From: Pseudomonadota bacterium
Lineage (GTDB): Bacteria > Pseudomonadota > Alphaproteobacteria > Caulobacterales > Hyphomonadaceae
NCBI GenBank assembly: GCA_039817025.1
Contig: JBCBWQ010000001.1
Span: 25,422-89,421, forward strand
Length of the DNA stretch: 64,000 bases
Direction: 5' to 3'
A program made the translations under genes and the position numbers. Numbering within the stretch: the first letter of the stretch is position 1; each line of letters opens with the position of its first letter. The notes beneath the pieces are model-generated. The model searched no databases and had not been told where the DNA came from. It was given only the letters and a program-made list of their open reading frames with translations. Below are positions 4,904 to 58,144 of this stretch, piece after piece.

Positions 4904-5917
4904 TTATGCTGTGCGGAACACCTCGCCAGTTGTCAGCATTGCCCAAATGGTCCGCGCCAACTTGTTTGCGACGGCAACGGCAACGACCATGGGTCTGCGT
5001 CGTTCGAGCATTGCTTCGATCCATGGGCCATCAACGCGTGAACGCGCCTTTGGATAGCGCACCACCGTTCGCGCCCCCAAAACGAGCAGGTGGCGGAGGT
5101 ATCGATCACCTTGCATGGTGATGCCACCGAGCCTGTTCTTACCGCCCGACGAGTTCTGTCGCGGCGTCAGGCCAAGCCAGGCGGCAAACTCGCGGCCAGA
5201 TCGAAAGGCCGACGGGTCCGGGACTGTGGCCGCGAAGGCCGTTGCTGTGATTGGCCCGATCCCTGGTATGGTCGAAAGCAAGCGGCAGATCGCATTGGTC
5301 TCGTGGATCTCAGCCAACCGGGCGTCGATCCCATCGATCTGCCGGTTAAGCGCATCCAGTTGTCCAACGAGCGCGTCCAAAGCGAAGCACGCATCCTCTG
5401 GCAGGTCTTCTCGTATCTCGTCCAGCTTTGCGACAAGAGTATCGACGCGATGTCTGCCCTGCGCGACGATAACTCCGTACTCGGCCAAGTGCGCTCGGAA
5501 CGCACAAGCCGCCATGGTGCGTTGCCGAACCAAAAGGCCTCTTGCCCGATGAAGCATCAGAAAGGCCTGATCCTCGCGTGACTTGACCGGGACAAAGCGC
5601 ATGTTTGGCCGAGTTACTGCTTCAAAGATGGCGGCGGCATCAGCGGCGTCGTTTTTCGCCCCGCGCCGAACATACGGTTTGACGTAGCCGGGAGGAATGA
5701 GGCGCACGTCATGTCCAAGCCGTTGTAGCTGGCGCGCCCAATTGTGGGCAGTCGCACAGGCCTCGATGCCGATCAGGCAAGCGGATGAGGCCTCAAAGAA
5801 CGGTGGCAACTCGCGGCGCGTCAGCCTCCTGCTATCAATCGTACATCCAGATGCATCGACGACATGGACATGGAAAACGCTTTTGGCGAGGTCGAGGCCA
5901 ACGGTGGCAGGGGTCAT
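4904..5917 (-). CDS. IS110-family transposase (DEDD type)
   Basis: MTPATVGLDLAKSVFHVHVVDA...IGIEACATAHNWAR...NDAADAAAI...LSTIPGIGPITATAF...GREFAAWLGLTPRQNSSGGK. The preferred start is the ATG at 5917, preceded by AAGGAG. The 406-aa track ORF over-extends upstream. Confidence 0.9.
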   Translation of the reverse strand: MTPATVGLDLAKSVFHVHVVDASGCTIDSRRLTRRELPPFFEASSACLIGIEACATAHNWARQLQRLGHDVRLIPPGYVKPYVRRGAKNDAADAAAIFEAVTRPNMRFVPVKSREDQAFLMLHRARGLLVRQRTMAACAFRAHLAEYGVIVAQGRHRVDTLVAKLDEIREDLPEDACFALDALVGQLDALNRQIDGIDARLAEIHETNAICRLLSTIPGIGPITATAFAATVPDPSAFRSGREFAAWLGLTPRQNSSGGKNRLGGITMQGDRYLRHLLVLGARTVVRYPKARSRVDGPWIEAMLERRRPMVVAVAVANKLARTIWAMLTTGEVFRTA

Positions 5918-5966
5918 GGTAAGCTCCTTTTGCAACGTGGGACCACCATACGGTCCCTTCTCAGCA

Positions 5967-5977
5967 GCGGGGCCGTC
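5967..5977. repeat. Right subterminal inverted repeat (GCGGGGCCGTC) of the IS110 element
   Basis: It is the exact reverse complement of 4648-4658. Confidence 0.7.
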
Positions 5978-5983
5978 TTCCCC

Positions 5984-6181
5984 ATCAACGGACGGATGCG
6001 CGAGGAATGCCTGAACGAACACCTGTTCCCGTCTCTGCGCCATGCCTGCCGCATGATTGCGGCATGGCGCGCCGACTACAATCAAAACCGGCCTCACTTC
6101 AGTCTCGCTGGCCGGACGCCACACGAATATGCTAACCGGTCAAAGGACCACCAAAACCTGAACAGAGCTAACCTTAGTTAG
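5984..6181 (+). pseudogene. Remainder of the IS407-like OrfB C-terminus
   Basis: INGRMREECLNEHLFPSLRHACRMIAAWRADYNQNRPHFSLAGRTPHEYA. Confidence 0.8.
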
Positions 6182-6205
6182 CGGACTCAACGGGGAGTAG
6201 GTCAC

Positions 6206-7225
6206 CTAGATTCCGTTCTGGCGACCAGGCAGTGCGATCTGATCTTCAGCCCGCAATAGCCGTGTTTGGATTCTTGGTTTTCTTGGAGTGACGGGAACGG
6301 TTGGCGCATTGTTGGTCTCTCGCTCCGGCGTCGTCGAAGGATTGGTGCCGTGATGTTCGTAGTGAGATCTGAATACCCCTGTTACGCGCTTTACGGGCCC
6401 GATATTTATCGCGATCTTGTCCAAGACAAATCGAAGCGACATTTCCGCCTCAGGACTGGATCTGTGGATCGTTTCAGCAAGTCTACTTAAATCGAATTTG
6501 GTCTGACCTGAAAATGCGCAAATGAATATTCCATTACCACTATATGTCAGTCTCGATTTACCGTCATGAAAATGCTCAATTATTTTTCGTGCGACAAACT
6601 GCAGTATCTCAAGGAAAACATCTGGGGTCACTTTAGGGAAAATGGTCTCTGCATTCGAAATCTCGATGGCAACAATTCGCATGCTAAATCGCTCTGGTTT
6701 AGACATCGCCTCAAAGTATGCGTCGAATTTACTTCGGCTAAGACAGTTTCGCACACCGCCGATCCTTACTTTATCCGCGAAGGTCAGTTTTTGAAAAGAC
6801 GGGTCTGTATCCAAGGGAGTCTGTAGCGGATGCGAAGCGCTTTGATTGGTGCTTTTCGCCGTATTTGCTTGAGAAGTTCTGCCCAAGATCTGGTCTGGAA
6901 CATCCTCACGCAAGAGATTTCGTTCTGCCCCGAGTTGATGAGCCGTCTTGAAAAGATCAGCGCTCTTTCCCGCATCGATTGTCCATAGCTTCGTCTCGGA
7001 AAATTGAGGAGACTTGCCAACAGTGTTGCACACAATCAAGCCAGATGAATTCGGCAGCCCCAGATCGACGAGCACGTGAGAGGCGCCGTACTCTTGATCA
7101 CCCAATACAGCCAAAGCTGCTCCTGCATCCGACACCGACGTAAATTCAATTGTTGGCATGGACGCAAGGATTTCCCTGCATGAGCTTGTGATCTTCTGAT
7201 CAGCACTTACAAGAAGCAACTTCAT
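6206..7225 (-). CDS. Receiver domain plus degenerate GGDEF-like domain protein
   Basis: MKLLLVSADQ...HVLVDLGLPNSSG is receiver-like. A S/T/P-rich linker follows. The GGDEF-fold region (RNCLSRSKFDAYFEAM...VAIEISNAE...LTYSGNGIFICAF) has SGNGI in place of GGDEF. The stop codon lies 2 nt from the IS3 right terminus. Confidence 0.6.
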   Translation of the reverse strand: MKLLLVSADQKITSSCREILASMPTIEFTSVSDAGAALAVLGDQEYGASHVLVDLGLPNSSGLIVCNTVGKSPQFSETKLWTIDAGKSADLFKTAHQLGAERNLLREDVPDQILGRTSQANTAKSTNQSASHPLQTPLDTDPSFQKLTFADKVRIGGVRNCLSRSKFDAYFEAMSKPERFSMRIVAIEISNAETIFPKVTPDVFLEILQFVARKIIEHFHDGKSRLTYSGNGIFICAFSGQTKFDLSRLAETIHRSSPEAEMSLRFVLDKIAINIGPVKRVTGVFRSHYEHHGTNPSTTPERETNNAPTVPVTPRKPRIQTRLLRAEDQIALPGRQNGI

Positions 7226-9275: not shown

Positions 9276-9934
9276 CGTTATCACTCTTGACTGGCCGCGA
9301 AATGGCGCGGCTTTTAACGCTTTCCGTTTACTTACCGTCCACAGAGTGCCCGGTCTTGAAAAGGGCATTCGTGAGCGGCATCCCATTCTAGGATCTGTGG
9401 AACCGACTTACTCGTTACACTCAAGGCCGGCCAGCACACATGGCCATCCCTGAAACACACTCGGTACTCTTACACTACACCGTCGAAACTCGACGAACTG
9501 GTTACTGGCACTTGTTACACTCTCGACTGCGCCACCCTCGCGTTCGATGACGCTTGTTTGAGGCATTTGACCGTGGTTAACAATTCGCTAAATCTTCAAC
9601 ATGGTGGTGTTTTCTTTCACACCACGTTGGATGATTTGTCACCCATTGAGCCGCCTAGCGTAGGTCAGAGTATCGGTAACCCGCTGGGTCGACTGCTCAT
9701 TGTGCATTCTGGTCTCCAGCTTGCTATGGTCTAGAAATCCTAAACGAGGAAACGCAAATGGCTGTGGCTTTCTTGCCTGCCTTTGAAGCGTCTTCTGGGA
9801 ATTGACGCTTGTCCGTCTAGCTTTGAGCCGGAACGACGGCTTTTATGACGTTCGTGGATGCCGCCAAAGTGCGCCGGTCGTGTGTAAGTACGATGTTGCG
9901 CCGGGGAACTTGACCATCCGGCGCAACGGTTTCG

Positions 9935-10690
9935 CTAGGCCACGATGCTCATGTCGCGCAAGAGTTGGCGTTTCGTTGGCAGTTGCCGTTCTTTGGAGAG
10001 CGCTTTCGGAGATGTCTCCAAGAATTGTTCCATATCTGCACGTCTCATCCAAACAAACGTCTCTTCTGCCTCTAGCTCTTCGTCGGGACCAATCCATGCG
10101 CATGGTTCGCACCGTGAATAGCCGTAACGCACCGGAATGCCCTTCATCGCTAATGCGGTTGGGACCAGCCCGAATAGATAGTCAGGCGACCAAATCTTAA
10201 GTGTGATTTCGAATACGATGCGCGACATTAGTGCTGTAAAACCCTGGTTTCGCAGGCCATCGTCCCCACCCTTCAACCAGAATTCACCATGGTAGCAAAC
10301 GCGGCCCGTTATTTGGTCAAGAGACGGCAACCGTGAGAAATGGGTTTGATCCGGGTCTGCGATCATTCCTGGTGAAAGATACTTGTGCCGGTGGTCTCTC
10401 AGATGCTCTTGAAGAGACGTCTTCGACAGATCCATCAGTCTTATTGCTTGTGTGTGCACAACCTCTCGGCGGTCATTGAATGCGCAAACCCAGAAGGCGT
10501 TTTGGGCATCAATGAAAGAACTTGCAGCGTCGAAAATCGGATAGAGTGCCGTACGGTCGGATTGTGTGTTTCTAAGGCGTCTATATGCAACAAAGTCTCC
10601 GCCGATCTCGATCCGCAAACCCGCGGCCTCGAGCTCTTTTACAATATTAGAAACATTTACGATTGTGGTGAAAAGGCTTAGGGCAGTCAT
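9935..10690 (-). CDS. Hypothetical protein, possibly a GNAT-fold acyltransferase
   Basis: 251 aa. ...YHGEFWLKGGDDGLRNQGFTALMSRIVFEI... contains an (R/Q)xxGx(G/A/T)-like motif in a beta-strand/helix context typical of GNATs. No LuxI signature was seen. Confidence 0.35.
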   Translation of the reverse strand: MTALSLFTTIVNVSNIVKELEAAGLRIEIGGDFVAYRRLRNTQSDRTALYPIFDAASSFIDAQNAFWVCAFNDRREVVHTQAIRLMDLSKTSLQEHLRDHRHKYLSPGMIADPDQTHFSRLPSLDQITGRVCYHGEFWLKGGDDGLRNQGFTALMSRIVFEITLKIWSPDYLFGLVPTALAMKGIPVRYGYSRCEPCAWIGPDEELEAEETFVWMRRADMEQFLETSPKALSKERQLPTKRQLLRDMSIVA

Positions 10691-14303: not shown

Positions 14304-15632
14304 CTATTCAGTGTCAGCCAAGGCGGTTGCCAATGCTTCAAAGGCCTCCTCAGCCGAAACGTTTTGGTTCCCGTCCTGGATAAGCCTTGCCTCCAATGTG
14401 CCCCGGACCGCCACTGCTCGATCAACACTTGCGTCGGATCCTTTCTGGTAGGCGCCGAGCCGGATAAGGTCTGCCATCTTTTCGTACAGAGACAACGCTT
14501 CCCTGGCCTGTCTCAGCATCGCGTTCTCCTGATCCGAATGGCACCCCGGCAGCATCCGAGAGACGCTACGCAAAAGGTCAACGGCTGGGAAACGGCCACT
14601 TTCGGCTATGGTGCGATCCAACAGAATGTGGCCGTCCAGCATGCCGCGAACGCCGTCCGAGATTGGATCGTCCAAATTGTCGCCCTCAGCGAGTACTGTA
14701 TACAGCGCTGTGATATCGCCTTGTTGCTGGCTTCCTGGGCCAGATCGCTCGACCAAACGCGGAAGTTCGGCAAAGACCGTTGGGGGAAAGCTACGTTGAG
14801 CGGGAGGTTCGCCGGTTGCGAGGCCAATCTCGCGCTGCGCGTGTGCAAACCGGGTGACGCTGTCGAGGATTAGCAGGACGTGTCGCCCTGAGTCGCGAAA
14901 GTGCTCCGCCACGGCGGTGGCTGTCCAGGCGGCTTGGCGGCGTGTAAGCGCCGGCTCATCGCCAGTGGCCACCACGATAACCGAGCGCGCCATGCCAATG
15001 GGCCCCAGGTCACGCTGCACGAAGTCTTGCAGCTCGCGCCCGCGCTCGCCAATCAGGCCAATGACGACAACGTCTGCCTGTGCCTGCATGGCCAGTTTTG
15101 CGATCAGGGTCGATTTGCCAACGCCGGGGCCTGCGAAGATTCCCATCCGCTGACCCCGGCAGATCGGTGCAAATACATCGATGCTGGACACCCCGGTGCT
15201 TAGCCGCGCGCCGGTCCGACGACGCGCGTATGCTGGCGGGGGGGCATTGCGTGCGCAGCGCTGGGCGGTTCCATTTTGCAATGGGCCCTTGCCATCAACC
15301 GGCATGCCGAATGCATTCACGACGCGGCCGATCCAGGCGTCATGCGGGCGCAAGGTCGAACCACCCGTTTGTACTTCCACTGGGTCGCCCTCGGTGACGC
15401 CGTCCCAGTTTCCAAAGGGGAGCACGCTGCAACCGAGGCTTTGGATGCTGACGACTTCGCCTCGAACAGGCCCGTTTGCGCCATGTACAAGACAGTGCTG
15501 CCCGATCCCCAAAAAGCCACCAAGGCCGCGGACTGTCAGCAAAAGGCCCGAGACGCTCGCGACTTCACCTTCCAACCGTGTTCCGGTGGTTGTGGCAAAA
15601 ACACTATTAAGATTAGCCAAGCCGGGAGTCAT
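14304..15632 (-). CDS. fliI: Flagellum-specific ATPase FliI
   Basis: Walker A GPGVGKST, then VVVIGLIGERGRE, and a T3SS/F1-ATPase-like C-terminal region. Confidence 0.95.
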   Translation of the reverse strand: MTPGLANLNSVFATTTGTRLEGEVASVSGLLLTVRGLGGFLGIGQHCLVHGANGPVRGEVVSIQSLGCSVLPFGNWDGVTEGDPVEVQTGGSTLRPHDAWIGRVVNAFGMPVDGKGPLQNGTAQRCARNAPPPAYARRRTGARLSTGVSSIDVFAPICRGQRMGIFAGPGVGKSTLIAKLAMQAQADVVVIGLIGERGRELQDFVQRDLGPIGMARSVIVVATGDEPALTRRQAAWTATAVAEHFRDSGRHVLLILDSVTRFAHAQREIGLATGEPPAQRSFPPTVFAELPRLVERSGPGSQQQGDITALYTVLAEGDNLDDPISDGVRGMLDGHILLDRTIAESGRFPAVDLLRSVSRMLPGCHSDQENAMLRQAREALSLYEKMADLIRLGAYQKGSDASVDRAVAVRGTLEARLIQDGNQNVSAEEAFEALATALADTE

Positions 15633-15686
15633 GAATAAAATCCTTGTATCTGATTTTAATCATGATAAAGGTTCTGTTAAATCTTG
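15631..15686. repeat. fliI/flgB spacer: variant copies of the cluster motif (ATGAATAAA, TTAAATCTTG) and two TTAA half-sites 21 nt apart
   Basis: Read directly: ATGAATAAA at 15631-15639, TTAA at 15656 and 15677, TTAAATCTTG at 15677-15686. Confidence 0.4.
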
Positions 15687-24562: not shown

Positions 24563-24609
24563 GAAAGATCTCCTTCCTCGCCCTCTATCACCTATAACAA
24601 GGATAAAAT

Positions 24610-24680
24610 CAAGAATTAAATTGAATTTGTTCTTGCATACGATGATTTAACAAAATATAAAATCGCTAACGCAAGATTAA
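24610..24680. repeat. fliL/fliF divergent spacer: CAAGAATTAA (24610-24619), TTAA-N7-TAAA (24647-24661), CAAGATTAA (24672-24680)
   Basis: Read directly. The minus-strand reading of 24667-24680 is TTAATCTTGCGTTA, identical to 44887-44900. Confidence 0.6.
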
Positions 24681-24683
24681 GAG

Positions 24684-29377: not shown

Positions 29378-30034
29378 CTAGATCGATTGCGAGGCGAGGA
29401 ATGTGCGCGCCTCGGTGATCGATGCCGTCACCGTCTCCGCCGCTTTCTCGTCATCCCCGGCTTTAATCAAGTCGATCAGGGCACGGTCATGTGCGATGAT
29501 CTGGGCATTTGACGCTTGCACAACCTCGGGCGGGTGATTTGCCAGAATGCTTGTGCGCGCCATGCAGTGAAACGCCTCACCGGCGATCATCGTGTCAGCG
29601 ACAAACGGGTTCTGGGATGCCAGTGCGATTGAGCTGACAAACTCAAAGTGTTTGTTCAAGAGATCGCCTGCCGGCTCGTCCGGCGTAGCGTTGAGAAGCA
29701 CCGCAGCGGGTTGTGTGATTTCTCCCCGCAGATTGCGTGTGGCGCGCTGAACCAGGAACGGAAACAGCCAATTCGCCATGTCAAAGTAATTGCGCAGCCC
29801 GGCCATTGACGCCGACGCCGCGAAAAAACCGCGATTGGGCTCGTTCACCACAAGTTTCTGTCGTTCAAGCAGGATCAAAGCCTCGCGCACAGGGGTGCGT
29901 GACACGCTGTAGCTTGCCGCAAGCGCTTCTTCGCTAATGTGTTGGGAGGGGGAGATCTCGTTTCGGATCAGCATCGCAAGGATATCTGTCTGTATCGACG
30001 TACGATGACTTACCTTTTGCAACGCTGCGGGCAA
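29378..30034 (-). CDS. GntR-family transcriptional regulator (FadR/FCD-type C-domain)
   Basis: ISEEALAASYSVSRTPVREALILLERQKLVV winged HTH, then an all-helical C-terminal domain. Confidence 0.8.
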   Translation of the reverse strand: MPAALQKVSHRTSIQTDILAMLIRNEISPSQHISEEALAASYSVSRTPVREALILLERQKLVVNEPNRGFFAASASMAGLRNYFDMANWLFPFLVQRATRNLRGEITQPAAVLLNATPDEPAGDLLNKHFEFVSSIALASQNPFVADTMIAGEAFHCMARTSILANHPPEVVQASNAQIIAHDRALIDLIKAGDDEKAAETVTASITEARTFLASQSI

Positions 30035-30256
30035 TTCTTCGATCTCCCGATGTTTTCTCTGGCTTTTGTGCCGGAGATAGTTGTTTTTTCTTTCGATCCT
30101 TTGGCCTTGTTAACGAATACGCGCTATCTGAAGTTGATAGTCAACATGCATATAGTAACCAGAGGTTGGTATCCGGTTCTGCTGCGCTGTTCCTGTGCCA
30201 AGTCGGCAACAGGCGCAGTCATTGGCTCGCAACGGTAATTGCGGCGCGTCGCAGTC

Positions 30257-30946
30257 TTATTCGGATCTGCCTGGGTGGATCAGCGTGCACGTCGACGGTG
30301 TGTCGCCCGACGTTGGAATGCGAGCAGTCTCCACAAGCGCGCGCTGGGCCGCCATCTGCAGGAAAAAGTCCAGAACACGGTGCCCAGACCCCACTGCGAT
30401 ACTGCCATCGCGGGCCAGGACCAGCTCGGGCACGGCCGCGAGCGTGCGCCCGGCGCTCAAGGGGCCGTCGAGTTCGATCATGACATCAGACCCCGATCGA
30501 ACGACCCTCCGCACCATGGCTGTGTGGGGCCCGGGCCGCCTGTTCGCGCCATCAGCGCGGCGTGGATCGCCATAAACACCGGTCGCAGGATCCCTTGCGC
30601 CTGCAAAGGCCATCTTGAACGTCGCTTTCCGAAGCGCGACCTGAAGGCGCTCCTTCACCGTAGGACTGACAACTGCCTCGGCCCGAGCGCGGCGCTGAGG
30701 CATGTGTGGGAGGCCGGCCCAACTTGTAGCCAAACGGTCGTAGGCAGTGTTTATGTCGACCAGGCGCTCATTCGCCCCGGGCATCTTGCGGTGAAGCTCA
30801 CCATGCAAGCGCCGGGCAAGCGACCGGTACGCCGTTTTGATGTCATGCAGAGTGCTGGTTTCACAGCAGCCGAGGATCGCAAGATCCCGCGCGATAGTCC
30901 CGTCCATCGAAGCCCCCAAGGCCGAATTGCGGCCGTAATGGGGCAA
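30257..30946 (-). CDS. J-domain-like protein lacking the HPD motif
   Basis: ARDLAILGCCETSTLHDIKTAYRSLARRLHGELHRKMPGANERLVDINTAYDRLA aligns with J-domain helices I-III, with HGE in place of HPD. The likely start is M14 (30907). The opposite-strand ORF at 30239..31042 is Arg-rich and was rejected. Confidence 0.5.
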   Translation of the reverse strand: MPHYGRNSALGASMDGTIARDLAILGCCETSTLHDIKTAYRSLARRLHGELHRKMPGANERLVDINTAYDRLATSWAGLPHMPQRRARAEAVVSPTVKERLQVALRKATFKMAFAGARDPATGVYGDPRRADGANRRPGPHTAMVRRVVRSGSDVMIELDGPLSAGRTLAAVPELVLARDGSIAVGSGHRVLDFFLQMAAQRALVETARIPTSGDTPSTCTLIHPGRSE

Positions 30947-31520: not shown

Positions 31521-31749
31521 TCACGCCACCACCCGGAGTGTTGTCGGCCCCGGATGCATCGACGGCCGCAAGAGCGGCGCGGATCCGTTCGATTAGCGCC
31601 GGGTCAAACGGCGGCAGTTTTGGCGGGCGCGTCGATTCCAAAGACATAGCATCGGACTCGCCTTCCGGTCTTGGCACCGGGTCAGCGGCGATGGCCGGAC
31701 CGGCCAATGCAACCACACACGCCAAAGCAATGGGTGTGTGCCGCGTCAT
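31513..31749 (-). CDS. 78-aa secreted/periplasmic protein of unknown function
   Basis: Signal peptide MTRHTPIALACVVALAGPAIA-ADP. Its start overlaps the motA stop by 4 nt, and its stop overlaps the next start by 8 nt. Confidence 0.5.
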   Translation of the reverse strand: MTRHTPIALACVVALAGPAIAADPVPRPEGESDAMSLESTRPPKLPPFDPALIERIRAALAAVDASGADNTPGGGVNE

Positions 31750-32612
31750 GCAGCTGCCAGCTCTTTCTGGGCAGTCTCGACCTCATAGAAGTCGGGTTGC
31801 ATGGATGTCGGGATGTTGCCGCGGCCGATCTCGATGCAGATGGCAGGGGGATGTTCGGCAACCATGGCGATAAAGATGTCGCGGATCACAATGTAAAAGG
31901 CGCCGTCCTCGTCTTCGATCTGCTTGAGACGCCCCGCGATGGGCGCAACCATGCAATAGGCCAGGAAGACACCAAGGAACGTGCCGACAAGGGCGCCACC
32001 GATCATCTTGCCCAGCACTTCGGGTGGCTGATCGATTGAGGACATCGTCTTGATCACACCAAGAACAGCCGCAACGATACCGATCGCGGGCAAACCGTCG
32101 GCCATGGTTTGAATGGCCTTGGCGGGTTCGAGGGCTTCGTGGTGGTGCTTCTTGATCTTGGCGTTGATGACGTCTTCGGTTTGATACTTGTCGTCGAACT
32201 GCATCGACAGCATTCGAAAGCTGTCTGTGATCAAATCAAGGGCAAAGTGATCCTTTTGGATCTTGGGGTAGCGCGAGAAGATTGAGCTGTCATGCGGGCT
32301 TTCGATATGCTCGTCGAGCGCTGTCATGCCCTTGGATTTGTAGAGCCGCGTCAGCTCAAACATCAGCAAAAGCAAATCGTTGAAGTCCTTGGCCTTCCAT
32401 CGTGTGCCTTTGAGAACTTTCAACAGCCCGACGCCGGAGCCCTTCACGACCTTCATTGAATTGGCGATCACAAACGCGCCGAAGGCCCCGCCGCCGATCA
32501 TCATGCCTTCATACGGCAACGCATAGAGGACGATGTCCATCTTGCCGCCCGAAAGCATGAAACCCCCGAAGACGAGACCGAAGACCATTGCAAGGCCAAA
32601 AATAAGCGTCAT
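31746..32612 (-). CDS. motA: Flagellar stator protein MotA
   Basis: MTLIFGLAMVFGLVFGGFMLSGG..., ...VGTFLGVFLAYCMVAPIAGRL... The start is the ATG at 32612, preceded by AAGGGTGA. The track ORF over-extends to 32675. Confidence 0.93.
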   Translation of the reverse strand: MTLIFGLAMVFGLVFGGFMLSGGKMDIVLYALPYEGMMIGGGAFGAFVIANSMKVVKGSGVGLLKVLKGTRWKAKDFNDLLLLMFELTRLYKSKGMTALDEHIESPHDSSIFSRYPKIQKDHFALDLITDSFRMLSMQFDDKYQTEDVINAKIKKHHHEALEPAKAIQTMADGLPAIGIVAAVLGVIKTMSSIDQPPEVLGKMIGGALVGTFLGVFLAYCMVAPIAGRLKQIEDEDGAFYIVIRDIFIAMVAEHPPAICIEIGRGNIPTSMQPDFYEVETAQKELAAA

Positions 32613-32649
32613 GCTGTCACCCTTTATATGAGCTTGATCACTGTCTGAC

Positions 32650-32710
32650 ATCTTGTGTATAAGAATAGTTGACATTAATCAAGAATAAATACATGATCTT
32701 ATCAAGAATA
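32650..32710. repeat. motA/orf314 spacer: three direct AAGAATA repeats (32661, 32681, 32704) plus TTGACA (32669-32674)
   Basis: Read directly: TATAAGAATAGTT / ATCAAGAATAAAT / ATCAAGAATAGTA. The spacings are 20 and 23 nt. Confidence 0.65.
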
Positions 32711-32728
32711 GTATGAAGAGCGCCTGAT

Positions 32729-33673
32729 ATGGACCATCCAACAACACTCATCTACCTGGCGGACGTGGAAACGCTGAGCCAACTGCACCGCAACTGGCCG
32801 AGCGATTTGCGCGTCGCATTGTGCTTGGAAGAGGGTGGTGAAAGTGACGTCATCGTTATTCGTCAGGACGAGGTTGATGAAGCGCCGGAACGCGTGGCCG
32901 CTTTGTTGGGTCGGGACGATGCCGATTTCGTAATCGTTCCTGTGCTTGGCGGTTATCCAACGCGGCGTCTGAGTTTTTCGCAAGAACAGCAACTTTGCGT
33001 AATGCTTGCAGATATGGTCGAGCTTCCCGATCAGGCGCGATCGAACTTCGATTATTTGGCAGAGAGTAACGGGCTCTCTGATGAGACTGGTTGCGAGAGC
33101 GAGATCCTGAAAAAGCCTGTAGTGGCGTCAAGCATCGCGCAGGCCCATCCAGCGGTTCACCCGGCGTTGGCCGAAATAGCAGATGAGGTGATCGGTCACT
33201 GGGGCAGGGTGGAACGATCCGGCACGGTTTGGTGTTTTACGGTCGATGGCATGCCAGAGTGCGATGATCACCCGCCCAGCATCTTTGCCCATCCAATTGC
33301 ACTGTCCGACGATCGGCGGCGTCTGCAGGCGGTGCTGGCACTGGCCACTGACTGGCGGGGTGGATTGCCGCAAGCCTTTCAGATGCCCGTCGATGGATTG
33401 CCAGACGGTTGCCCCGACCTGCAGGACGGCACAACGCATCGCGTATTCTTTCGTTCGGAAGGGACCGCGCTGACGATCACTTTGCCTGTCTTGAAACCGT
33501 CCGCTTCCTCATCGCCCCTCGCCGACACTGCAAAACCGCGTCGGCGCCGCCTTCTTGGGCCAGCCTTGGCTGCGGCAACGGCGCTGGTGATGGTTCAAGT
33601 GGGCACATCTCCGGACGTCATCGATGCAATGCGCGCGGCCGGCACATTTCAATCGGGCTTCCAGGACAGGTGA
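32729..33673 (+). CDS. Hypothetical protein with a C-terminal transmembrane tail, divergent from motA
   Basis: 314 aa with no motif I recognise. RRRRLLGPALAAATALVMVQVG near the C-terminus looks like a single TM helix. Confidence 0.55.
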   Translation: MDHPTTLIYLADVETLSQLHRNWPSDLRVALCLEEGGESDVIVIRQDEVDEAPERVAALLGRDDADFVIVPVLGGYPTRRLSFSQEQQLCVMLADMVELPDQARSNFDYLAESNGLSDETGCESEILKKPVVASSIAQAHPAVHPALAEIADEVIGHWGRVERSGTVWCFTVDGMPECDDHPPSIFAHPIALSDDRRRLQAVLALATDWRGGLPQAFQMPVDGLPDGCPDLQDGTTHRVFFRSEGTALTITLPVLKPSASSSPLADTAKPRRRRLLGPALAAATALVMVQVGTSPDVIDAMRAAGTFQSGFQDR

Positions 33674-33925
33674 GGTGGCGAACGGAACTATAAGGACTTG
33701 AGGACGGTTAACCAAGACGTAACCATGCATGCAAATATAAAACGCATATGAGTATCCTAGATTTGTTTGTGACCAATGTTTATAATGGTCTGTGTTCTTG
33801 ACGCAGTGCTAGATAGGTCGAAGAATTCGACGATCATTTTGGTCCCACCTGTGCGCTAAAGGTTGTTTTGCGCGTAAGGGGCCAAGGATCCTCGTGAACT
33901 GCGAGGTGAGAAAAGAGGTCAGAAG

Positions 33926-34402
33926 ATGACACAGCAAGATAAGAAAAGTGAGATGATCGCCCAGATCGTATCGGCCTTCGCGTCGCGCACCGACGTTACG
34001 GCAGCCGATATAGCGGAATTAACCCTGAAATTGACGCAAGAGCTTGCAGCGGCGCCCGACGATGACAGCGCTGTGATGCCTAGCGCCTATAACGCTGCGA
34101 CCGCGCAGGCCGCACCCAAACCTTCCGTTAACAATACCGAACGCGCCGTCCCGGCAATTGCCATCGAAGACGCGGTGACACCGTCAAAGGTGTATTGCCT
34201 GTGCTGCGGAAAGGGCTTCAAGATGCTCAAGCGGCATCTTGGTGCCGTCCATGGTTTGACTGAGGACGAGTATCGCGAAAAGTTCAATTTACCGAAAGAC
34301 TTCCCGCTGGTCGCGCCAGAGTATTCCGCGATGAAAGCAGAGACGGCCGCGAGGCTTGGTCTTGGCAAGTACGAGCGTGCGAAAGCCGATCCTGTCGACT
34401 GA
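33926..34402 (+). CDS. mucR: MucR/Ros-family zinc-finger transcriptional regulator
   Basis: KVYCLCCGKGFKMLKRHLGAVHGLTEDEYREKFNLPKDFPLVAPEYS is the Ros/MucR signature. Confidence 0.9.
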   Translation: MTQQDKKSEMIAQIVSAFASRTDVTAADIAELTLKLTQELAAAPDDDSAVMPSAYNAATAQAAPKPSVNNTERAVPAIAIEDAVTPSKVYCLCCGKGFKMLKRHLGAVHGLTEDEYREKFNLPKDFPLVAPEYSAMKAETAARLGLGKYERAKADPVD

Positions 34403-35601: not shown

Positions 35602-35933
35602 GAAACAATGCAGCAATGGCAGCGGTGCATACCGCGGATGTGCGAAACAGTGCGGCGCCACAGCGGAAATTAGGCCGTGACACGCTTAAGAAGTCCCCAA
35701 ACAATTCCATAGATCTCGGCAATCATCGCAACCATCCACAACATGTTGTGGGTAGCTGGCGGTCTTTGGTGTCTGGCGAGATTGTATAATGATGTAATGC
35801 AGTCCAAATGCATCATCCATACAGTTTGTATACATCAAGTATACACTTCAATATTCTGAAAAATATAGGATTTCCCGCTTCTGCCGGTACGAATGGCGTC
35901 ACTTAGGCAACAAAACCCTGGAGCAGAAGCCCA

Positions 35934-36545
35934 ATGACGACCAAGACAGATACTCTTTTGCATGCAATTTGGACCTGTGCCGTAAGCCCCGTTCACCCTG
36001 ACGCAAAACACCCGCTCATCGCTCTTGTAGAGACTTTTCTAAAAGTAAAAGCCGTCGTGATCGAAGTCCCCACAGGTCCGCTTTGTGGCCGCGTGTTTCA
36101 GGAAACGACCGAGCTGATGCCCGATCTGCCGATTGCGGATGTCCTGGAGCACGAGCTTGATATCTGCGTTCCCGCTGGTGCGATCATCATCTGCTTATCG
36201 GCCGATGCCCAGGACACAAGGGGCAACTTACGCGCAGCGTCACGGGCATTGGGCACGTTTTGTGCCGAGGTTGTCGTCGACACCGTGCAGCTGGCCGCCA
36301 CCCCGTTTGCCGATGAACGCAAAGAGATGCGTGAACGTGCACAGGCAATAATGTCTCTGGCCCGTCAACTCGCGACTGCGCCCGGCGCCGTGGACGTCCC
36401 AAGTTTCAAGTCCGCACTGGCACGGGGTTTCGGAGAGCTTCTCGGAGGGCCGGCCAATGCGCGCTCCGCCGATGCCACGCTTGCAGCGCTGTACGTTCCT
36501 GAGGCTGACACCACTAATACGCTAGCCGCCGCCCGCAGGGTTTAA
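35934..36545 (+). CDS. Hypothetical protein upstream of the sigma factor gene
   Basis: A 203-aa ORF with coding-like GC3 and no motif recognised. Confidence 0.5.
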   Translation: MTTKTDTLLHAIWTCAVSPVHPDAKHPLIALVETFLKVKAVVIEVPTGPLCGRVFQETTELMPDLPIADVLEHELDICVPAGAIIICLSADAQDTRGNLRAASRALGTFCAEVVVDTVQLAATPFADERKEMRERAQAIMSLARQLATAPGAVDVPSFKSALARGFGELLGGPANARSADATLAALYVPEADTTNTLAAARRV

Positions 36546-36557
36546 TCAAGCATTAAC
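36542..36557 (+). promoter_or_regulatory. Perfect CtrA-type box TTAATCAAGCATTAAC (TTAA-N7-TTAAC)
   Basis: Read directly. It overlaps the stop of the 35934..36545 ORF and lies 68 nt upstream of the sigma gene ATG. Confidence 0.55.
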
Positions 36558-36560
36558 CAC

Positions 36561-36627
36561 TTTATTCTTGAAAATCTCTGCACATCAAGCAGAATAAACA
36601 AGAATAAATAGAAAGTACAAGAATATG
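36561..36627. repeat. Sigma-gene leader: TTTATTCTT (36561-36569, reverse complement of AAGAATAAA), CAGAATAAA (36590), AAGAATAAA (36600-36608), AAGAATATG (36619-36627, includes the start codon)
   Basis: Read directly. Confidence 0.65.
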
Positions 36628-37353
36628 TCCATGTTCTTCGACGCGCTAAGCGGACCAACCCTGGAAGTCAGTGAAGAGCGTGCTGCAATCCACGCCTGGC
36701 AAACACGCGGGGACCGTGCGGCATTGGGTCTACTATTGCGCTCACACGCGCGCCAGGCACGGGCGTATGCCCGCAAGTGGGCCAAGAACCCCACGGATCT
36801 GGATGACTTGATGGCAGAGGGCATGCTGGGGCTCATCGAAGCAGCCTCACGTTTCGATCTGGACCGAGATGTCCGATTCAATACCTACGCCTACTGGTTC
36901 ATTCGTAACCGGATCGCCTCGGCGCAGGTAACGGTATCAAGTGTCGTTGATTTGCCCACGAGGGTATTCATCGATGCGCGCTCTGGCAGGCTAGACCCGA
37001 ACACGAATCCCGATGCGATTGCGGCCATTGAACCGACCCTCGGCGTTGATGATGCCGCGGCGGTGGGCACCCCCGTGATATGCCCCGACAAAACGCCCGA
37101 AGAATTCGTTGCTGAGCAATCCGCACAGGATCAGGTGCGCCGGCTTCTTGATGATGCGCTTTCAAAGCTGGAGCCCATGGAAGAGGCTGTCATCCGTCGC
37201 CGCCTTGACAGCGATGATCATGAAAGCACGACGCCAAATATTCTCCTGAAGGTTTCTGGCCCCCGTCTTCGTGCGATCGAGCGTCGTGCCATCACCCGAC
37301 TGCGCCAGATCCTTCAGCGCAGCGGCTTCAGCCTTGCGATGCTCGACCACTGA
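36625..37353 (+). CDS. Sigma-70 family sigma factor (group 3 / FliA-RpoH-like size)
   Basis: Region 2: DLMAEGMLGLIEAASRFDLDRDVRFNTYAYWFIRNRI. Region 4: EEAVIRRRL...LKVSGPRLRAIERRAITRLRQ. Confidence 0.8.
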   Translation: MSMFFDALSGPTLEVSEERAAIHAWQTRGDRAALGLLLRSHARQARAYARKWAKNPTDLDDLMAEGMLGLIEAASRFDLDRDVRFNTYAYWFIRNRIASAQVTVSSVVDLPTRVFIDARSGRLDPNTNPDAIAAIEPTLGVDDAAAVGTPVICPDKTPEEFVAEQSAQDQVRRLLDDALSKLEPMEEAVIRRRLDSDDHESTTPNILLKVSGPRLRAIERRAITRLRQILQRSGFSLAMLDH

Positions 37354-42991: not shown

Positions 42992-43023
42992 CAAGATTAA
43001 ATGTTGCACAACCGAAGAATAAA
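42992..43023. repeat. flgF/orf612 divergent spacer: CAAGATTAA (42992-43000) and AAGAATAAA (43015-43023)
   Basis: Read directly. Confidence 0.6.
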
Positions 43024-43041
43024 TGCAAGTATAAATTTGAA

Positions 43042-44880
43042 ATGACCAAGTACAGTAGAAAATTTTCGGCGCTTATCCTTTATTCTTGTCTTGGGGTGGG
43101 GACCGCACTTGCCGCCGATCCGCCGGAGCCGGTGGGCGGCGAAGGGGTGGCTGCCGACGCAGCAACTGCGCATCAGCCACTTGCCAGCACGCCTCAGTGC
43201 TATGGGGGTCACCGCGCCGCACTTCGCCGTCTCGCCGAGACGCAGGAAGCAGATCGTACACCTACGCACCCAAGCCGGGCGGTTGAGCATCTGGAACTGG
43301 CGGAAGACTACTTCGAAAAGGGGCTGATACTCGAAGCGTGGTCGTTCGCTAAAGACATTTCGGACGAAGCTTTGCCACCGGACCTCGCTACCAAACGGCT
43401 TCAGCTTCTGGCGATGGCAACTGTTCTGGATCCGCGCCCGGGCGCGAAGCCGCAAGTGGCCGATAGCGCGTTTGAGGCCATGCCAAAGCGCGCGGTGTTT
43501 CAGGCGCTGGCCCACGCGCGGGCTGGCCGTGCAGCACAAGCCGCTGCATCGCTGGCCGATCACATTGATGATCTTACGTCGCTTCCCGTTGCGATACGGG
43601 CCCGAGCTTTGCCGTATCTTCTGCTTTCTGCGATCGAAGCCAACGATTGGATAACGAGCCGTGCTTTGGTCGTGGCGTTCCAAGATCACCCGGCACTCGC
43701 GGGCTCGGCCGCGTTTTCCTACCTGTTGGGCCATACGGCGCTGCAAAATGGCGAACGGCTGCGTGCGTTTGACCACTTTACCGCTGCATCTGGCAGCGCC
43801 GACAAGTGGGGCCACCGCGCACGGTTGCAGATGGTCGACCTTGCGGTGGCGCATGGGGGCGTTACCGCGAAAGAGCATGAGCACATGCTGATGCGGATCT
43901 ACGGCGCGTGGCGTCTTGGCCCGGAAGCGAGCGGGACGCTGCTGCGCATCGAAGATCTGCAGATGCAGCAGGGCAACCGCTTGGGGGCGCTTCAGACGCT
44001 GTCAACGTTGATGACAAACCACGCGGGATCGGAGGAAGCGCTTGAGGCGCGGGGGCGGGCCCGCTTGATCCTAGCAGAGTTCTACCGCCGTTTGATCAAG
44101 GACGGTGCAGATCTCAATACGGTGATCAAAAGCCACGAAGAGGTTGCCAGTGACTATCGCTTTTTCGAAGGTTTCGATGTCTACGCCGAGATGTTTGCGG
44201 ATCACCTGTTGTCGGTCGGACTTTCGGGACGCGCGGCGCAGGAATACCGCCTGACCGGGGAGTATCTTGCCGCGGCGAAAAGCCTTGGGCTTTTCGAAAC
44301 CCAATCCGAGCGGACCGACGCGTTGCGCCTGAAAGAGGCCGAAGCGCTTTTGGAAGGGGGGCAGATTGCAAGGGCAAAAGGCATACTGGAGGTGTCGTTA
44401 TCCGTCGACGCGCCACGCATGGTGGCGCGGCTTGCATCGCTGCGTGCGGTGTATTTTGCGCGAACCGGCGAGACACTCAGCGAAGCCGAGGCGACATCTG
44501 CGCGCCCAAGCGGTTTCATCCGTGAGCTCGCAGAGCAGTACTTTGAAGCGGAACAATGGGACTTGGCGCGGTTGGAATACCTCAAACTGGCCCGGGTCAT
44601 GGGCGACGATCTTGCCACGCCGGATGCGGTTAACCTGTTTCTGGCTGCGGAGCGCAGTGGGGATGCAGCCCTCTCAAAGGTGCTCGGCGATCTGGTTGCT
44701 CAGCGGCCCGATTTTGATCAGGCCTCTGTTGCCGCAGGGTTGAACATCGCTGCCGAAACGGACGACAAAATCCGCCGCAAAACACTTGACGCTGTTGTCG
44801 AGCGTGCGGAACGAGTGCTCATTGAAGTGGATGCGCTGGCCAGTGAAGGACCGCCGGATCCCGATGCTCTCCAAGAATAA
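43042..44880 (+). CDS. Large secreted helical-repeat (TPR-like) protein of unknown function
   Basis: 612 aa with signal peptide MTKYSRKFSALILYSCLGVGTALA. It is A/L/E/R-rich with repeated helical hairpin-like segments. It sits between flgF and flgE. Confidence 0.6.
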   Translation: MTKYSRKFSALILYSCLGVGTALAADPPEPVGGEGVAADAATAHQPLASTPQCYGGHRAALRRLAETQEADRTPTHPSRAVEHLELAEDYFEKGLILEAWSFAKDISDEALPPDLATKRLQLLAMATVLDPRPGAKPQVADSAFEAMPKRAVFQALAHARAGRAAQAAASLADHIDDLTSLPVAIRARALPYLLLSAIEANDWITSRALVVAFQDHPALAGSAAFSYLLGHTALQNGERLRAFDHFTAASGSADKWGHRARLQMVDLAVAHGGVTAKEHEHMLMRIYGAWRLGPEASGTLLRIEDLQMQQGNRLGALQTLSTLMTNHAGSEEALEARGRARLILAEFYRRLIKDGADLNTVIKSHEEVASDYRFFEGFDVYAEMFADHLLSVGLSGRAAQEYRLTGEYLAAAKSLGLFETQSERTDALRLKEAEALLEGGQIARAKGILEVSLSVDAPRMVARLASLRAVYFARTGETLSEAEATSARPSGFIRELAEQYFEAEQWDLARLEYLKLARVMGDDLATPDAVNLFLAAERSGDAALSKVLGDLVAQRPDFDQASVAAGLNIAAETDDKIRRKTLDAVVERAERVLIEVDALASEGPPDPDALQE

Positions 44881-44920
44881 ACGGGTTTAATCTTGCGTTA
44901 ACCGCCAACCGCAAGATCAA
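44872..44920. repeat. flgE leader composite: CAAGAATAAA-N5-TTAATCTTG, and the inverted pair TTAATCTTGCG / CGCAAGATCAA
   Basis: Read directly: 44872-44881, 44887-44897 and 44910-44920. Confidence 0.65.
44887..44902 (+). promoter_or_regulatory. Perfect CtrA-type box TTAATCTTGCGTTAAC
   Basis: TTAA-N7-TTAAC read directly, 58 nt upstream of the flgE ATG. Confidence 0.6.
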
Positions 44921-44959
44921 ACATGAACACTCCTAAACCAAAAGAAGGACTTTGCTGAC

Positions 44960-48825: not shown

Positions 48826-49548
48826 CTAACGGGTCGTCGCCTGTTGTCTGTCGAACGCGTCGGCGCTTAGCCGGTAGCCGCGGCCTGGGACCGTTTCGAT
48901 ATAGGCCGAACCTGTCTTGGTCACCGCGTCAAACTTCTTGCGGATTTTGCAGATATAGACGTCCACCACCTTGTCGAATGGCGGCACCTCAGCCACCGCA
49001 TAGACCGAGTCGTAGATTGCGGCTTTCGAGACAACGCGTCCCGCATTCAACGCAAGCTGTTGGAAGATCTCGTGCTCTTTGCTGGACAGGCGCACTCGCG
49101 AGCCGTCGATTTCGGGATCCCGCCCATCAAGGAAAGCGGTGACCGCGCCGACCCGAACCTCTTTCGTGATGTGGCCTTTCGCCCGCCGGATCGTCGCGTT
49201 GATCCGCGCTTTCAACTCAAAGCCCTTGATCGGGATCACCATATCTTGGTCCGCACCCAGATTGATCGACTGGGCCGCCGCCGCAGCGCTTCGGAAGTCG
49301 CGCATCACCACGATGGGATGCGCACATGCCGCAGAGCGAAGGGCATCGATCTGTTCGGCCAGCTGGTCTGTTTCAGCCAGCAGGAAGCCTGCTGCCATCG
49401 TGTCTTCGCGTGTCAAGAGCGACAAGTCGCGTCTGAAGAACGCCTCGTCGATAGAAACCAGTGCGAAGCCAGCGTTGGCAAGTTCGGTGCAAAGCCCCGC
49501 CATCCGTTCGCTACGGGGCTCGTGAACATAAAGCTGCATGAATACCAC
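48826..49548 (-). CDS. OmpR-family winged-helix regulator with a degenerate receiver domain (FtcR-like orphan)
   Basis: C-terminal ...LSSKEHEIFQQLALNAGRVVSKAAIYDSVY...VDVYICKIRKKF...YIETVPGRGYRL is an OmpR/PhoB DNA-binding domain. The N-terminal receiver fold lacks the acidic pocket (LYVHEPR instead of ..VDDD..), and the phospho-Asp position reads FLLAETD. Confidence 0.8.
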   Translation of the reverse strand: MVFMQLYVHEPRSERMAGLCTELANAGFALVSIDEAFFRRDLSLLTREDTMAAGFLLAETDQLAEQIDALRSAACAHPIVVMRDFRSAAAAAQSINLGADQDMVIPIKGFELKARINATIRRAKGHITKEVRVGAVTAFLDGRDPEIDGSRVRLSSKEHEIFQQLALNAGRVVSKAAIYDSVYAVAEVPPFDKVVDVYICKIRKKFDAVTKTGSAYIETVPGRGYRLSADAFDRQQATTR

Positions 49549-49601
49549 GCGTCCTTGCTACACCCCCTATATAAGGATAGATCATGACTGAAGATCTATA
49601 T

Positions 49602-49643
49602 CAAGAATAAAATAATTTTAATCTTGACATTGTGAAGAATAAA
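49602..49643. repeat. ftcR-like/flgI divergent spacer: CAAGAATAAA-N6-TTAATCTTG, TTGACA, AAGAATAAA
   Basis: Read directly: 49602-49611, 49618-49626, 49624-49629 and 49635-49643. Confidence 0.65.
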
Positions 49644-51544: not shown

Positions 51545-51560
51545 TTAACCCAGGCTTAAC
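51545..51560 (+). promoter_or_regulatory. Perfect CtrA-type box TTAACCCAGGCTTAAC upstream of the flagellin gene
   Basis: TTAA-N7-TTAAC read directly, about 85 nt upstream of the flagellin start. Confidence 0.6.
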
Positions 51561-58128: not shown

Positions 58129-58144
58129 TTAACCCGCCGTTAAC
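58129..58144 (+). promoter_or_regulatory. Perfect CtrA-type box TTAACCCGCCGTTAAC, plus a TTAACCAT half-site at 58108-58115
   Basis: Read directly, 48-84 nt upstream of the PAS-GGDEF-EAL start (58192). Confidence 0.55.

Follow-up and report, generated by a model that had tools for sequence, protein, structure and literature searches.

A fla2-type flagellar cluster and its motA/orf314 spacer

We analysed a 64,000-nucleotide stretch of contig JBCBWQ010000001.1 from the Pseudomonadota assembly GCA_039817025.1 (positions 25,422 to 89,421; hereafter, the window), focusing on three direct repeats in the short spacer between two divergent genes of a flagellar cluster, motA and orf314 (Table 1). The nearest named relatives of MotA come from roseobacter-group Rhodobacterales (Limimaricola, Profundibacterium, Marinovum, Pseudooceanicola), and the cluster shares synteny with that on plasmid pMaD5 of Marinovum algicola DG898, the fla2-type reference. 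The gene order and content held in common with pMaD5 include the genes for RR1 (an OmpR-family protein), for a sigma factor and for a MucR/Ros protein, as well as an orf314 homologue divergent from motA. By synteny with the pMaD5 cluster, the criterion adopted here for the type as defined in the Petersen/Tomasch nomenclature (PMC12363192), this is a fla2-type cluster of Rhodobacterales. Clusters of the fla2-type are scattered over clades, are plasmid-borne half of the time and spread by horizontal operon transfer; the fla1-type is vertically inherited, and regulation by the CtrA phosphorelay was analysed in that study for the fla1-type only (PMC12363192).

For comparison, 77 related loci (L-numbers) were fetched via MotA and RR1 homologues; a search of genome contigs with orf314 returned only the identical contig of the metagenome-assembled genome and no other relatives. 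Genes of RepABC-type partition and replication systems adjoin the flagellar cluster in L006 (11789-15273), a Pseudooceanicola batsensis-type contig, which is consistent with a plasmid or chromid location of fla2-type clusters.

Three direct repeats in the spacer

The motA/orf314 spacer has a GC content of 34%, compared to 57% for the whole window. A pattern search finds the heptamer AAGAATA three times on the plus strand of the spacer (32661-67, 32681-87 and 32704-10), in steps of 20 and 23 nucleotides, and so bears out the three direct repeats of one orientation and of this spacing that the initial annotation had described. Of the 13-mers that represent the three copies, those of copies 2 and 3 (32678-90 and 32701-13) coincide exactly with the original placement, and that of copy 1 spans 32658-70, one base to the left of the 32659-71 given originally. 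The TTGACA hexamer reported between copies 1 and 2 sits precisely where it had been placed, and the same layout, TTGACA followed by a repeat unit, does recur in front of flgI at 49624-43. The pattern TTGACA-N4-7-AAGAATAAA matches the window only at 32669-89 and 49624-43, and shuffled sequences contain no matches.

The three repeats are not a chance occurrence. In 20,000 dinucleotide shuffles of the spacer, any 7-mer was present three times in 84 cases (0.4%), and AAGAATA never was. In the window as a whole, AAGAATA is five-fold over-represented, with 16 occurrences against 2.9 expected. Three same-strand units in one spacer have the form of an OmpR/PhoB-type operator, that is, two or more direct repeats of a 6-10-bp unit. 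The spacer has no match to a known RNA family in Rfam.

A unit shared by seven AT-rich spacers

The repeats are copies of a 9-10-bp unit, CAAGnATA(A/G), that recurs throughout the cluster. A degenerate form, [CGT]AAGN[AT]T[AT][AG], matches the intergenic DNA of the cluster (2,716 bp) 18 times, compared to 2.04 +/- 1.42 expected when each intergenic region was shuffled separately; none of the 5,000 shuffles reached 18. Seven AT-rich spacers contain all of these matches. The longer form CAAGAWTAAA, with at most one mismatch, yields 22 matches where 3.97 are expected, and 21 of these are found in seven places: the fliI/flgB, fliL/fliF, motA/orf314, flgF/orf612 and RR1/flgI spacers, and the regions upstream of the sigma gene and of flgE. 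Among 19 instances of the unit, A2, A3, G4 and T7 are invariant, C1 is present in 15, and A8 and A9 are present in 16 each. Units occur in both orientations, including at unidirectional promoters, and tandem units at 10-12 bp are found in other spacers of the window. The scan of the cluster intergenic regions detected no unit upstream of the flagellin-type genes, mucR, motB or orf203. CAAGnATA(A/G) is the cis-element that the early promoters of the fla2-type cluster (those for basal body, hook, motor and regulators) have in common.

Table 1 Features of the motA/orf314 spacer and of the surrounding flagellar cluster
Feature	Coordinates	Strand	Remarks
motA/orf314 spacer	32613-32728		116 bp, between motA (-) and orf314 (+)
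Unit 1 (TAAGAATAG), copy 1	32660..32668	+	Adjoins the -35 hexamer; relatives have ATAAGnATAA or AAAGAATAG directly 5' of TTGAC (44 distinct)
Unit 2 (CAAGAATAAA), copy 2	32680..32689	+	In the spacer of the putative orf314 promoter; CAAGnATAAA is the best-conserved block of the module
Unit 3 (CAAGAATAG), copy 3	32703..32711	+	On the predicted orf314 transcript start; lineage-specific
TTGACA	32669..32674	+	Likely -35 of the orf314 promoter
CATGAT	32692..32697	+	Likely -10 of the orf314 promoter; predicted start near 32704
Tentative motA promoter	32654..32682	-	Read from sequence
RR1/flgI spacer	49572..49643	+	Four units and TTGACA (49624-29) in the TTGACA-N4-unit layout; kept in L079
flgF/orf612 spacer (57 bp)	42992..43035	+	Three units, steps of 22 and 12 bp
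Upstream of sigma gene	36542..36627	+	Perfect CtrA box (36542-56), then units in both orientations
fliL/fliF spacer	24598..24681	+	Units
fliI/flgB spacer	15630..15686	unassigned	Units
Upstream of flgE	44872..44921	+	Units and a perfect CtrA box (44887-901)
motA	31746..32612	-	First gene of the motA operon; Pfam MotA_N and MotA_ExbB; homologues of 288 aa
orf314	32729..33673	+	Conserved cluster gene; homologue divergent from motA in nearly all relatives
RR1	48826..49548	-	CtrA paralogue with a pseudo-receiver domain; candidate unit binder
MucR/Ros zinc-finger protein	33926..34402		Pfam 8.4e-34; gene conserved in the cluster
Sigma-70-family protein	36625..37353		Region 2 nearest to RpoH models, below their cut-offs
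Second clade with inverted module			Upstream of motA in L037, L039, L041-L049, L051, L054, L060 and L073

The seven spacers are 28-44% GC in a 57% background, and this composition brings up the neighbouring MucR/Ros protein, whose gene is conserved in the cluster, as a possible reader: the units would be its preferred nucleation sites as it silences the AT-rich spacers of an acquired cluster. MucR silences AT-rich acquired genes and oligomerises, so that variable spacing and orientation would be tolerated (PMC12560781), and Caulobacter MucR co-regulates CtrA-activated promoters (PMC4287350). However, the family is described as preferring AT-rich DNA over a strict word (PMC12560781), whereas the unit has four invariant positions, a G included, and is conserved across genera. 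Furthermore, the AT-rich stretches upstream of mucR and orf203 (33674-33925 and 35602-35933) hold no units. We consider this explanation very unlikely. A reading at the RNA level, with the units as CsrA-type CAAGGAUA sites, was rejected: the units vary at the fifth base and are found on either strand.

Two of the other spacers resemble that of motA in their layout. On the minus strand of the RR1/flgI spacer, a promoter-like TTCACA (49636-31)-N16-TATTTT, extending to 49609, crosses the plus-strand elements as in the motA spacer. In the flgF/orf612 spacer, a unit is followed by TTGCAC (43004) and two more units, with AAGTAT 17 bp past TTGCAC, and this order is kept in L079 and L080. In these three clusters (window 43026-43044, L079, L080), AAGTAT lies 7-9 nt (9 nt in the window) and the end of a unit 7-8 nt before the ATG of orf612, the product of which has a lipoprotein-like N-terminus, and a Shine-Dalgarno sequence is absent. 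Because AAGTAT is so close to the ATG and a Shine-Dalgarno sequence is lacking, the orf612 mRNA is probably leaderless or near-leaderless. A further unit, TTTATTCTTG, is located at 43079-43088, 30-45 nt into the orf612 coding region, and has equivalents in L080 and L078 in a different reading frame. The retention of this unit in other clusters despite the change of frame suggests a constraint at the DNA level.

Conservation of a 41-bp module in related clusters

The initial annotation had proposed a comparison of the spacer in related genomes. The repeats are kept there: at least two units are present in 58 of the 63 distinct motA-upstream regions. Forty-four distinct relatives share a 41-bp module, ATAAGnATAA-TTGACA-N5/6-CAAGnATAAA(-CAAGAATAG), in which TTGAC(A/T/G) is near-invariant and on both sides of which the information content is at the background level. 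The main arrangement (38 distinct sequences) contains three units, ATAaGtAtAA-TTGACa-N6-CAAGnATAAA-cAAGaATAG. The subclade to which the window belongs (window, L008, L009, L069, L002 and L004) has (A/T)AAGAATAG-TTGAC(A/G)-N5-CAAGAWTAAAT, with TATAnn, TAGATT or CATGAT in place of the third tandem unit. As judged from these alignments, copies 1 and 2 together with the intervening TTGACA are the conserved core, and copy 3 is not conserved; it is absent in L008 (MotA 95% identical), L009 and L004, and an inverted unit is found nearby in L002 and L069.

The distances between neighbouring units of the same orientation in the 63 distinct regions are 10 bp (30 cases), 11 bp (13), 20-21 bp (15), 30-32 bp (6) and 23 bp (a single case, the window), that is, 43 of 72 are 10-11 bp and 21 of 72 are 20-21 or 30-32 bp. 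The conserved geometry consists of copy 1, TTGACA and copy 2 at 20-21 bp, to which most relatives add a unit 10-11 bp past copy 2. Because the distances fall at multiples of about 10.5 bp, the helical phasing is real. Thus, of the phased OmpR/PhoB-type geometry originally proposed for the repeats, the same-strand arrangement and the phasing hold, but the combination of 20 and 23 is not the conserved geometry, the 23-bp step being unique to this genome.

A second clade (MotA about 75% identical; Table 1) has the module as a whole in the opposite orientation with respect to motA and orf314. There, motA is faced by a tandem CAAGGATAAA-GT-AAGAATAG, a conserved GGAGG lies within the 24-26 nt that separate the end of this tandem from the motA ATG, and a single CAAGTATTAT faces the orf314 homologue.

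The unit is not confined to the vicinity of motA. It is present in the same spacers of five other fla2-type clusters, namely, those of M. algicola pMaD5, L079, L080, O. granulosus and Sulfitobacter SK025, among which RR1 identity goes down to 43-47%. In pMaD5, the units are CAAGCATAAaTAAGGATAG (motA), CAAGCATAAcgCAAGAATAG (flgI/RR1) and CTATCCTTGaaagCAAGGATAG (sigma). L079, with an RR1 that is 86% identical, reproduces the flgI, orf612 and flgE arrangements of the window almost base for base. The RR1/flgI spacer of L080 (~9850-10000) carries three tandem units, TTATCCTTG TTATTCTTG CTATCCTTC, in 9-bp steps, which are shorter than a helical turn. In Sulfitobacter SK025, the RR1 of which is 47% identical, the 62-bp flgB/fliI spacer of the plasmid contains TTATCCTTG-N8-CAAGGATAG, and units of the TTAACCTTG form are also present.

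Putative core promoters within the module

Only one sigma-70-like site was found in the spacer by a promoter scan, TTGACA-N17-CATGAT, with 10 of 12 matches; its hexamers are separated by a distance within the 16-18 bp of sigma-70-type promoters and lie at a workable distance from the start codon of orf314. The predicted 5' untranslated region of orf314 is about 25 nt long and contains GAAGAG. In most relatives, AAGAAT occupies the -10 position, 17 bp past TTGACA and inside the third tandem unit; in the main group, 20-38 nt that include Shine-Dalgarno-like sequences separate the end of this unit from the orf314-type start codon.

On the minus strand, two registers can be read for a motA promoter, TTGATT (32682-77)-N17-TACACA (32659-54) or a -35-less one with TATTCT (32667-62, the complement of unit 1) as the -10 element. 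Both put unit 2, which reads TTTATTCTTG on the opposite strand, at the -35 position, where it would lie for any motA promoter. Because nothing is conserved outside the 41-bp block, we tentatively place the motA promoter within it. Sigma-70-like sites are not enriched over shuffles, and therefore, the promoter assignments rest on conservation rather than on the scan; the transcription starts and the sign of regulation are inferred.

In either direction of transcription, units lie on or beside the predicted core promoter elements. Those facing a gene are close to its start codon, with the Shine-Dalgarno sequence in between, and therefore overlap the -10 region or the promoter spacer. In this respect, the initial view of the repeats as the operator of a regulator has to be revised, given that the units lie inside or against core promoter elements and there is no separate upstream operator. 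In R. sphaeroides, CtrA boxes end 23-24 nt before the transcription start site (PMC6180460). Such a class II-activator geometry for the gene that a unit faces was rejected, as the Shine-Dalgarno sequence or the start codon comes within 7-26 nt.

Given this placement, the units might be core promoter sequence and no regulator site at all, read by the housekeeping sigma factor or by that of the cluster. AAGnAT would be a -10 element and, on the other strand, TATnCT would be the -10 and CTTG or TTG the start of the -35, the same word being reused both ways in short divergent spacers. Several arrangements agree with this possibility: a set of 38 relatives yields the consensus TTGACA-N17-AAGAAT, its AAGAAT being part of the third unit; TTGCAC-N17-AAGTAT precedes the orf612 ATG, which lacks a Shine-Dalgarno sequence, by 7-9 nt, also in L079 and L080; and TTGAAA-N16-CAGAAT and TTGACG-N17-AAGAAT are found before the sigma gene and mucR, respectively. 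Positions 2 (A) and 6 (T) of AAGnAT do not vary among the units, the tandem of the second clade ends 24-26 nt before the motA ATG with the conserved GGAGG in between, and inversion of the module would be neutral. What a promoter word leaves unexplained, however, is the invariant C/G of CAAG and the trailing TAA(A), the conservation of unit 2 within a promoter spacer, the tandems 10-11 bp apart with phasing at 20-21 and 30-32 bp, and the units that point away from the sole downstream gene; the lack of enrichment of promoter-like sites over shuffles also speaks against it. We regard it as unlikely that promoter function accounts for the units.

The cluster sigma factor, in particular, is an unlikely reader of the units because L003 (Limimaricola cinnabarinus, 5850-6620) and L005 (Profundibacterium, 6015-6734) lack its gene at the syntenic position, where only an orf203 homologue is left, and yet, L003 retains a perfect module. 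The unit was also compared by hand with RpoH-like (CTTG-N17/18-CYTATNT) and sigma-28-like (TAAA-N15-GCCGATAA) promoters, and the spacings do not fit.

RR1, a CtrA paralogue with a degenerate receiver

The atypical OmpR-family winged-helix regulator to which the initial annotation had drawn attention is encoded in the cluster itself. Its product, RR1, matches Pfam Trans_reg_C (PF00486, 3.7e-18), the DNA-binding domain of the OmpR/PhoB family and the only Pfam domain detected across the RR1 family; there is no Response_reg match in Pfam. The best NCBIfam model is CtrA (NF045991), with 118.6 bits compared to 64.7 for the next one, and because this score is below the CtrA cut-off of 350, RR1 is a CtrA paralogue rather than an orthologue. 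Aligned with Caulobacter crescentus CtrA, the sequence of which was verified by exact look-up, RR1 is 35% identical over residues 69-227 only. The recognition helices are nearly identical (KVVDVYICKIRKKF in RR1 versus KIIDVFICKLRKKL in CtrA), and the wings read YIETVPGRGY and HIETVWGRGY, respectively.

In contrast, the phosphorylation site is gone. At the positions of the CtrA receiver, D51 is replaced by G, S or R in the RR1 family, the DD pocket by PR, and K105 by I, A, S or G, so that RR1 lacks the acceptor Asp, the acidic pocket and the Lys of a canonical response regulator. The predicted structure (pLDDT 85.5) shows a receiver-like domain and a winged helix in the two-domain OmpR-type arrangement, and a Foldseek search with this model retrieves full-length OmpR-family structures, with E-values down to 4e-14, including HP1043 (2hqr) and GlnR (8hih). 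By sequence, RR1 is thus a CtrA paralogue with a degenerate receiver which, without a phospho-acceptor site, should act unphosphorylated. The promoter region of the RR1 gene contains four units. The products of orf314 and orf203 were considered as DNA-binding factors and rejected, no DNA-binding domain having been found in either.

The unit itself looks like an extended CtrA half-site. Its 3' part, (A/T)TA(A/G), corresponds to the half-site TTAA, with CAAG as a family-specific extension, and its reverse complement, TTAWTCTTG, shares 6 of 8 positions with TTAACCAT, a CtrA 8-mer mentioned in PMC6180460. Some units merge into canonical CtrA motifs, as in TTAATCAAGCATTAA (36542), TTAATCTTGCGTTAA (44887) and TTAACCTTG in L082 and L004.

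It could accordingly be asked whether the canonical, phosphorylated CtrA of the host binds the units, with RR1 acting elsewhere, at full TTAA-N7-TTAA boxes or as a competitor. The TTAA-like half-site and the resemblance of the reverse complement to TTAACCAT would fit, flagellar genes are under CtrA control across Rhodobacterales (PMC12363192, PMC6180460), and perfect CtrA boxes are conserved in the cluster. In the motA spacer, 32675-89 fits TTAA-N7-TTAA at 7 of 8 positions, but this candidate box was rejected, as it is not kept in relatives, where the left half is ATTT, CATT or CTGA. Real CtrA boxes conserve the half-sites and leave the N7 free, whereas here the conserved CAAG falls inside the would-be N7. 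Moreover, the cluster type is mobile and often plasmid-borne, and the presence of a CtrA paralogue within it points to a dedicated factor (PMC12363192). Binding of the units by host CtrA seems to us quite unlikely.

Canonical CtrA boxes do occur elsewhere. The one upstream of the sigma gene (window 36542-56; L004, L069, L082, L078 and L006) fits at all positions in four clusters and at 7 of 8 in two, and units of both orientations follow it; its separate conservation points to an input of host CtrA into the cluster by way of the sigma gene. Perfect TTAA-N7-TTAA boxes are also located upstream of flgE (44887-44901), with the same sequence in L079, about 96 nt upstream of the flagellin-type gene at 51642 (51545-51559), and outside the cluster (58129-58143).

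A possible mechanism

Taken together, the multiplicity of the units, their occurrence in both orientations, the 10.5-bp phasing and the orf612-internal unit in different frames favour a DNA-binding protein over promoter hexamers as the explanation. In the reading that we favour, to which we give an even chance, the units are docking sites for a CtrA-family winged-helix protein, with RR1 as the favoured binder. Both binding and the identity of the binder we infer.

Each unit would dock one winged-helix domain, and RR1, perhaps together with or against CtrA, would occupy units that share one helical face, their distances being multiples of about 10.5 bp. TTGACA and units 1 and 2 form the core of the 41-bp module, which appears to hold both divergent promoters in an interleaved arrangement: the orf314 promoter as TTGACA(32669)-N17-CATGAT(32697), and the motA promoter on the opposite strand, its -35 position coinciding with unit 2. 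Relative to the orf314 promoter, unit 1 would then lie at about -44 to -36, unit 2 at -24 to -15, that is, in the promoter spacer, and unit 3 at about the transcript start (+1). Relative to the motA promoter, unit 2 would lie at about -41 to -26, and unit 1 within the core promoter. The division of RNA polymerase between the two directions would depend on the occupancy of the units by the regulator, possibly as with CtrA, by activation from the -35 side and occlusion from the -10 or spacer side. CtrA directly activates divergent flagellar promoters in R. sphaeroides (PMC6180460), and in Caulobacter it activates from -35 and represses from -10, with one box located at -39 of one promoter and at -14 of another (PMC4287350).

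Several observations weigh against this mechanism. The gene-facing units are 7-38 nt from start codons, with the Shine-Dalgarno sequence in between, a repressing rather than an activating position for the gene that they face. Neither register of the motA promoter passes the sigma-70 criteria of the promoter scan, and the tandem steps vary, from 9 to 12 bp. The recognition helix of RR1 is so similar to that of CtrA that RR1 might prefer TTAA-N7-TTAA boxes, leaving the CAAG units to another factor. Finally, the inversion of the module in the second clade is hard to square with opposite effects on motA and orf314. The inversion suggests that the net outcome of regulation has to be tolerable for both genes, and a symmetric role (both on or both off) fits this better than a strict toggle.

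A bolder version of RR1 docking, which we hold to be improbable, would make the 41-bp block a self-contained, invertible bidirectional cassette. The 9-bp word would combine a phosphorylation-independent CtrA-mimic dock (at about -40) with the -10 or spacer of the opposite promoter, and RR1, as the mimic, would allow a plasmid-borne cluster to express its early genes without the host CtrA phosphorelay or in rivalry with it. Canonical CtrA boxes would be kept only at the sigma, flgE and flagellin genes.

Comparison with known regulatory systems

The closest parallel is with the CtrA sites of R. sphaeroides fla2 and Caulobacter (PMC6180460, PMC4287350). In both cases, an alphaproteobacterial flagellar cluster contains short divergent spacers (fliL/fliF, flgB/fliI, motA) with sites, here only predicted, for an OmpR-family winged-helix protein and a TTAA-type half-site against the -35; a single CtrA site can serve two overlapping promoters, and binding over the -10 represses. 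Unlike in CtrA sites, the conserved word here is CAAGnATA(A/G), not TTAA-N7-TTAA, with CAAG at positions where CtrA boxes are unconstrained, and the units come in arrays (10-11, 20-21 or 30-32 bp) and inverted pairs. The units are also closer to the genes, 7-38 nt from start codons compared to a box-to-ATG distance of 35-57 nt in R. sphaeroides (PMC6180460), and the candidate binder is a cluster-encoded paralogue without a phospho-acceptor.

Direct repeats on one face of the helix, 10-11-bp tandem steps in most relatives and a unit that consists of a specific core and an A/T-rich tail also recall PhoB/OmpR operators. These are tandem 10-11-bp direct repeats that replace or abut the -35. The motA spacer of the window differs from such operators in its steps of 20 and 23, and the cluster differs in that inverted arrangements are frequent and units reach the -10 region. 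Phosphorylation-independent OmpR-family regulators are represented by HP1043 of Helicobacter and GlnR of actinobacteria. As modelled, RR1 would share with them a full receiver-like and winged-helix fold with a non-functional phosphorylation site, but the identity is 18-21%, the organisms and regulons are different, and the DNA sites are unrelated.

Rem of Sinorhizobium meliloti and FtcR of Brucella are cluster-encoded OmpR-type master activators of class II flagellar genes that stand between global regulators and structural genes and are reported to bind short motifs at class II promoters. RR1 is likewise an OmpR-family regulator encoded in a flagellar cluster; its closest model is CtrA, and the cluster here is of the Rhodobacterales fla2-type, with a different gene order. 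Regulators of the Rem/FtcR type are mentioned in PMC6180460. A literature search, of incomplete coverage, found no description of the CAAGnATA(A/G) word, of RR1 or of fla2-type regulation.

Within the promiscuous, often plasmid-borne marine fla2-type system, the unit is thus a cis-element that is found clade-wide and labels precisely the early promoters. Together with a named candidate regulator, the CtrA paralogue without a phospho-acceptor, and a conserved 41-bp bidirectional module, it makes the activation of this cluster accessible to direct tests. The system is, in addition, a natural example of how the paralogue of a global cell-cycle regulator may diverge in DNA specificity, TTAA-N7-TTAA versus CAAGnATAA, and of the packing of two promoters into 40-60 bp.

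Other features of the locus

Upstream of the MucR/Ros gene, TTGACG-N17-AAGAAT (33798-33826) contains the same AAGAAT -10 as the motA module of the relatives, with the full unit absent. The orf314 protein has no Pfam or NCBIfam match; it has a C-terminal hydrophobic segment (LLGPALAAATALVMV) and is conserved among homologues only over approximately the first 40% of its length. In this genome only, genes for a GntR/FCD regulator and for a DnaJ-domain protein are located between fliG and the motA operon (29378-30946); the relatives examined have other genes or none at this position. The mechanical motA open reading frame reaches 21 codons further upstream, to an ATG at 32675 (31746-32675), and so covers unit 1 and TTGACA. 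One database homologue (P0001, 316 aa) is annotated with such an extension, and the named homologues share the start that corresponds to 288 aa.

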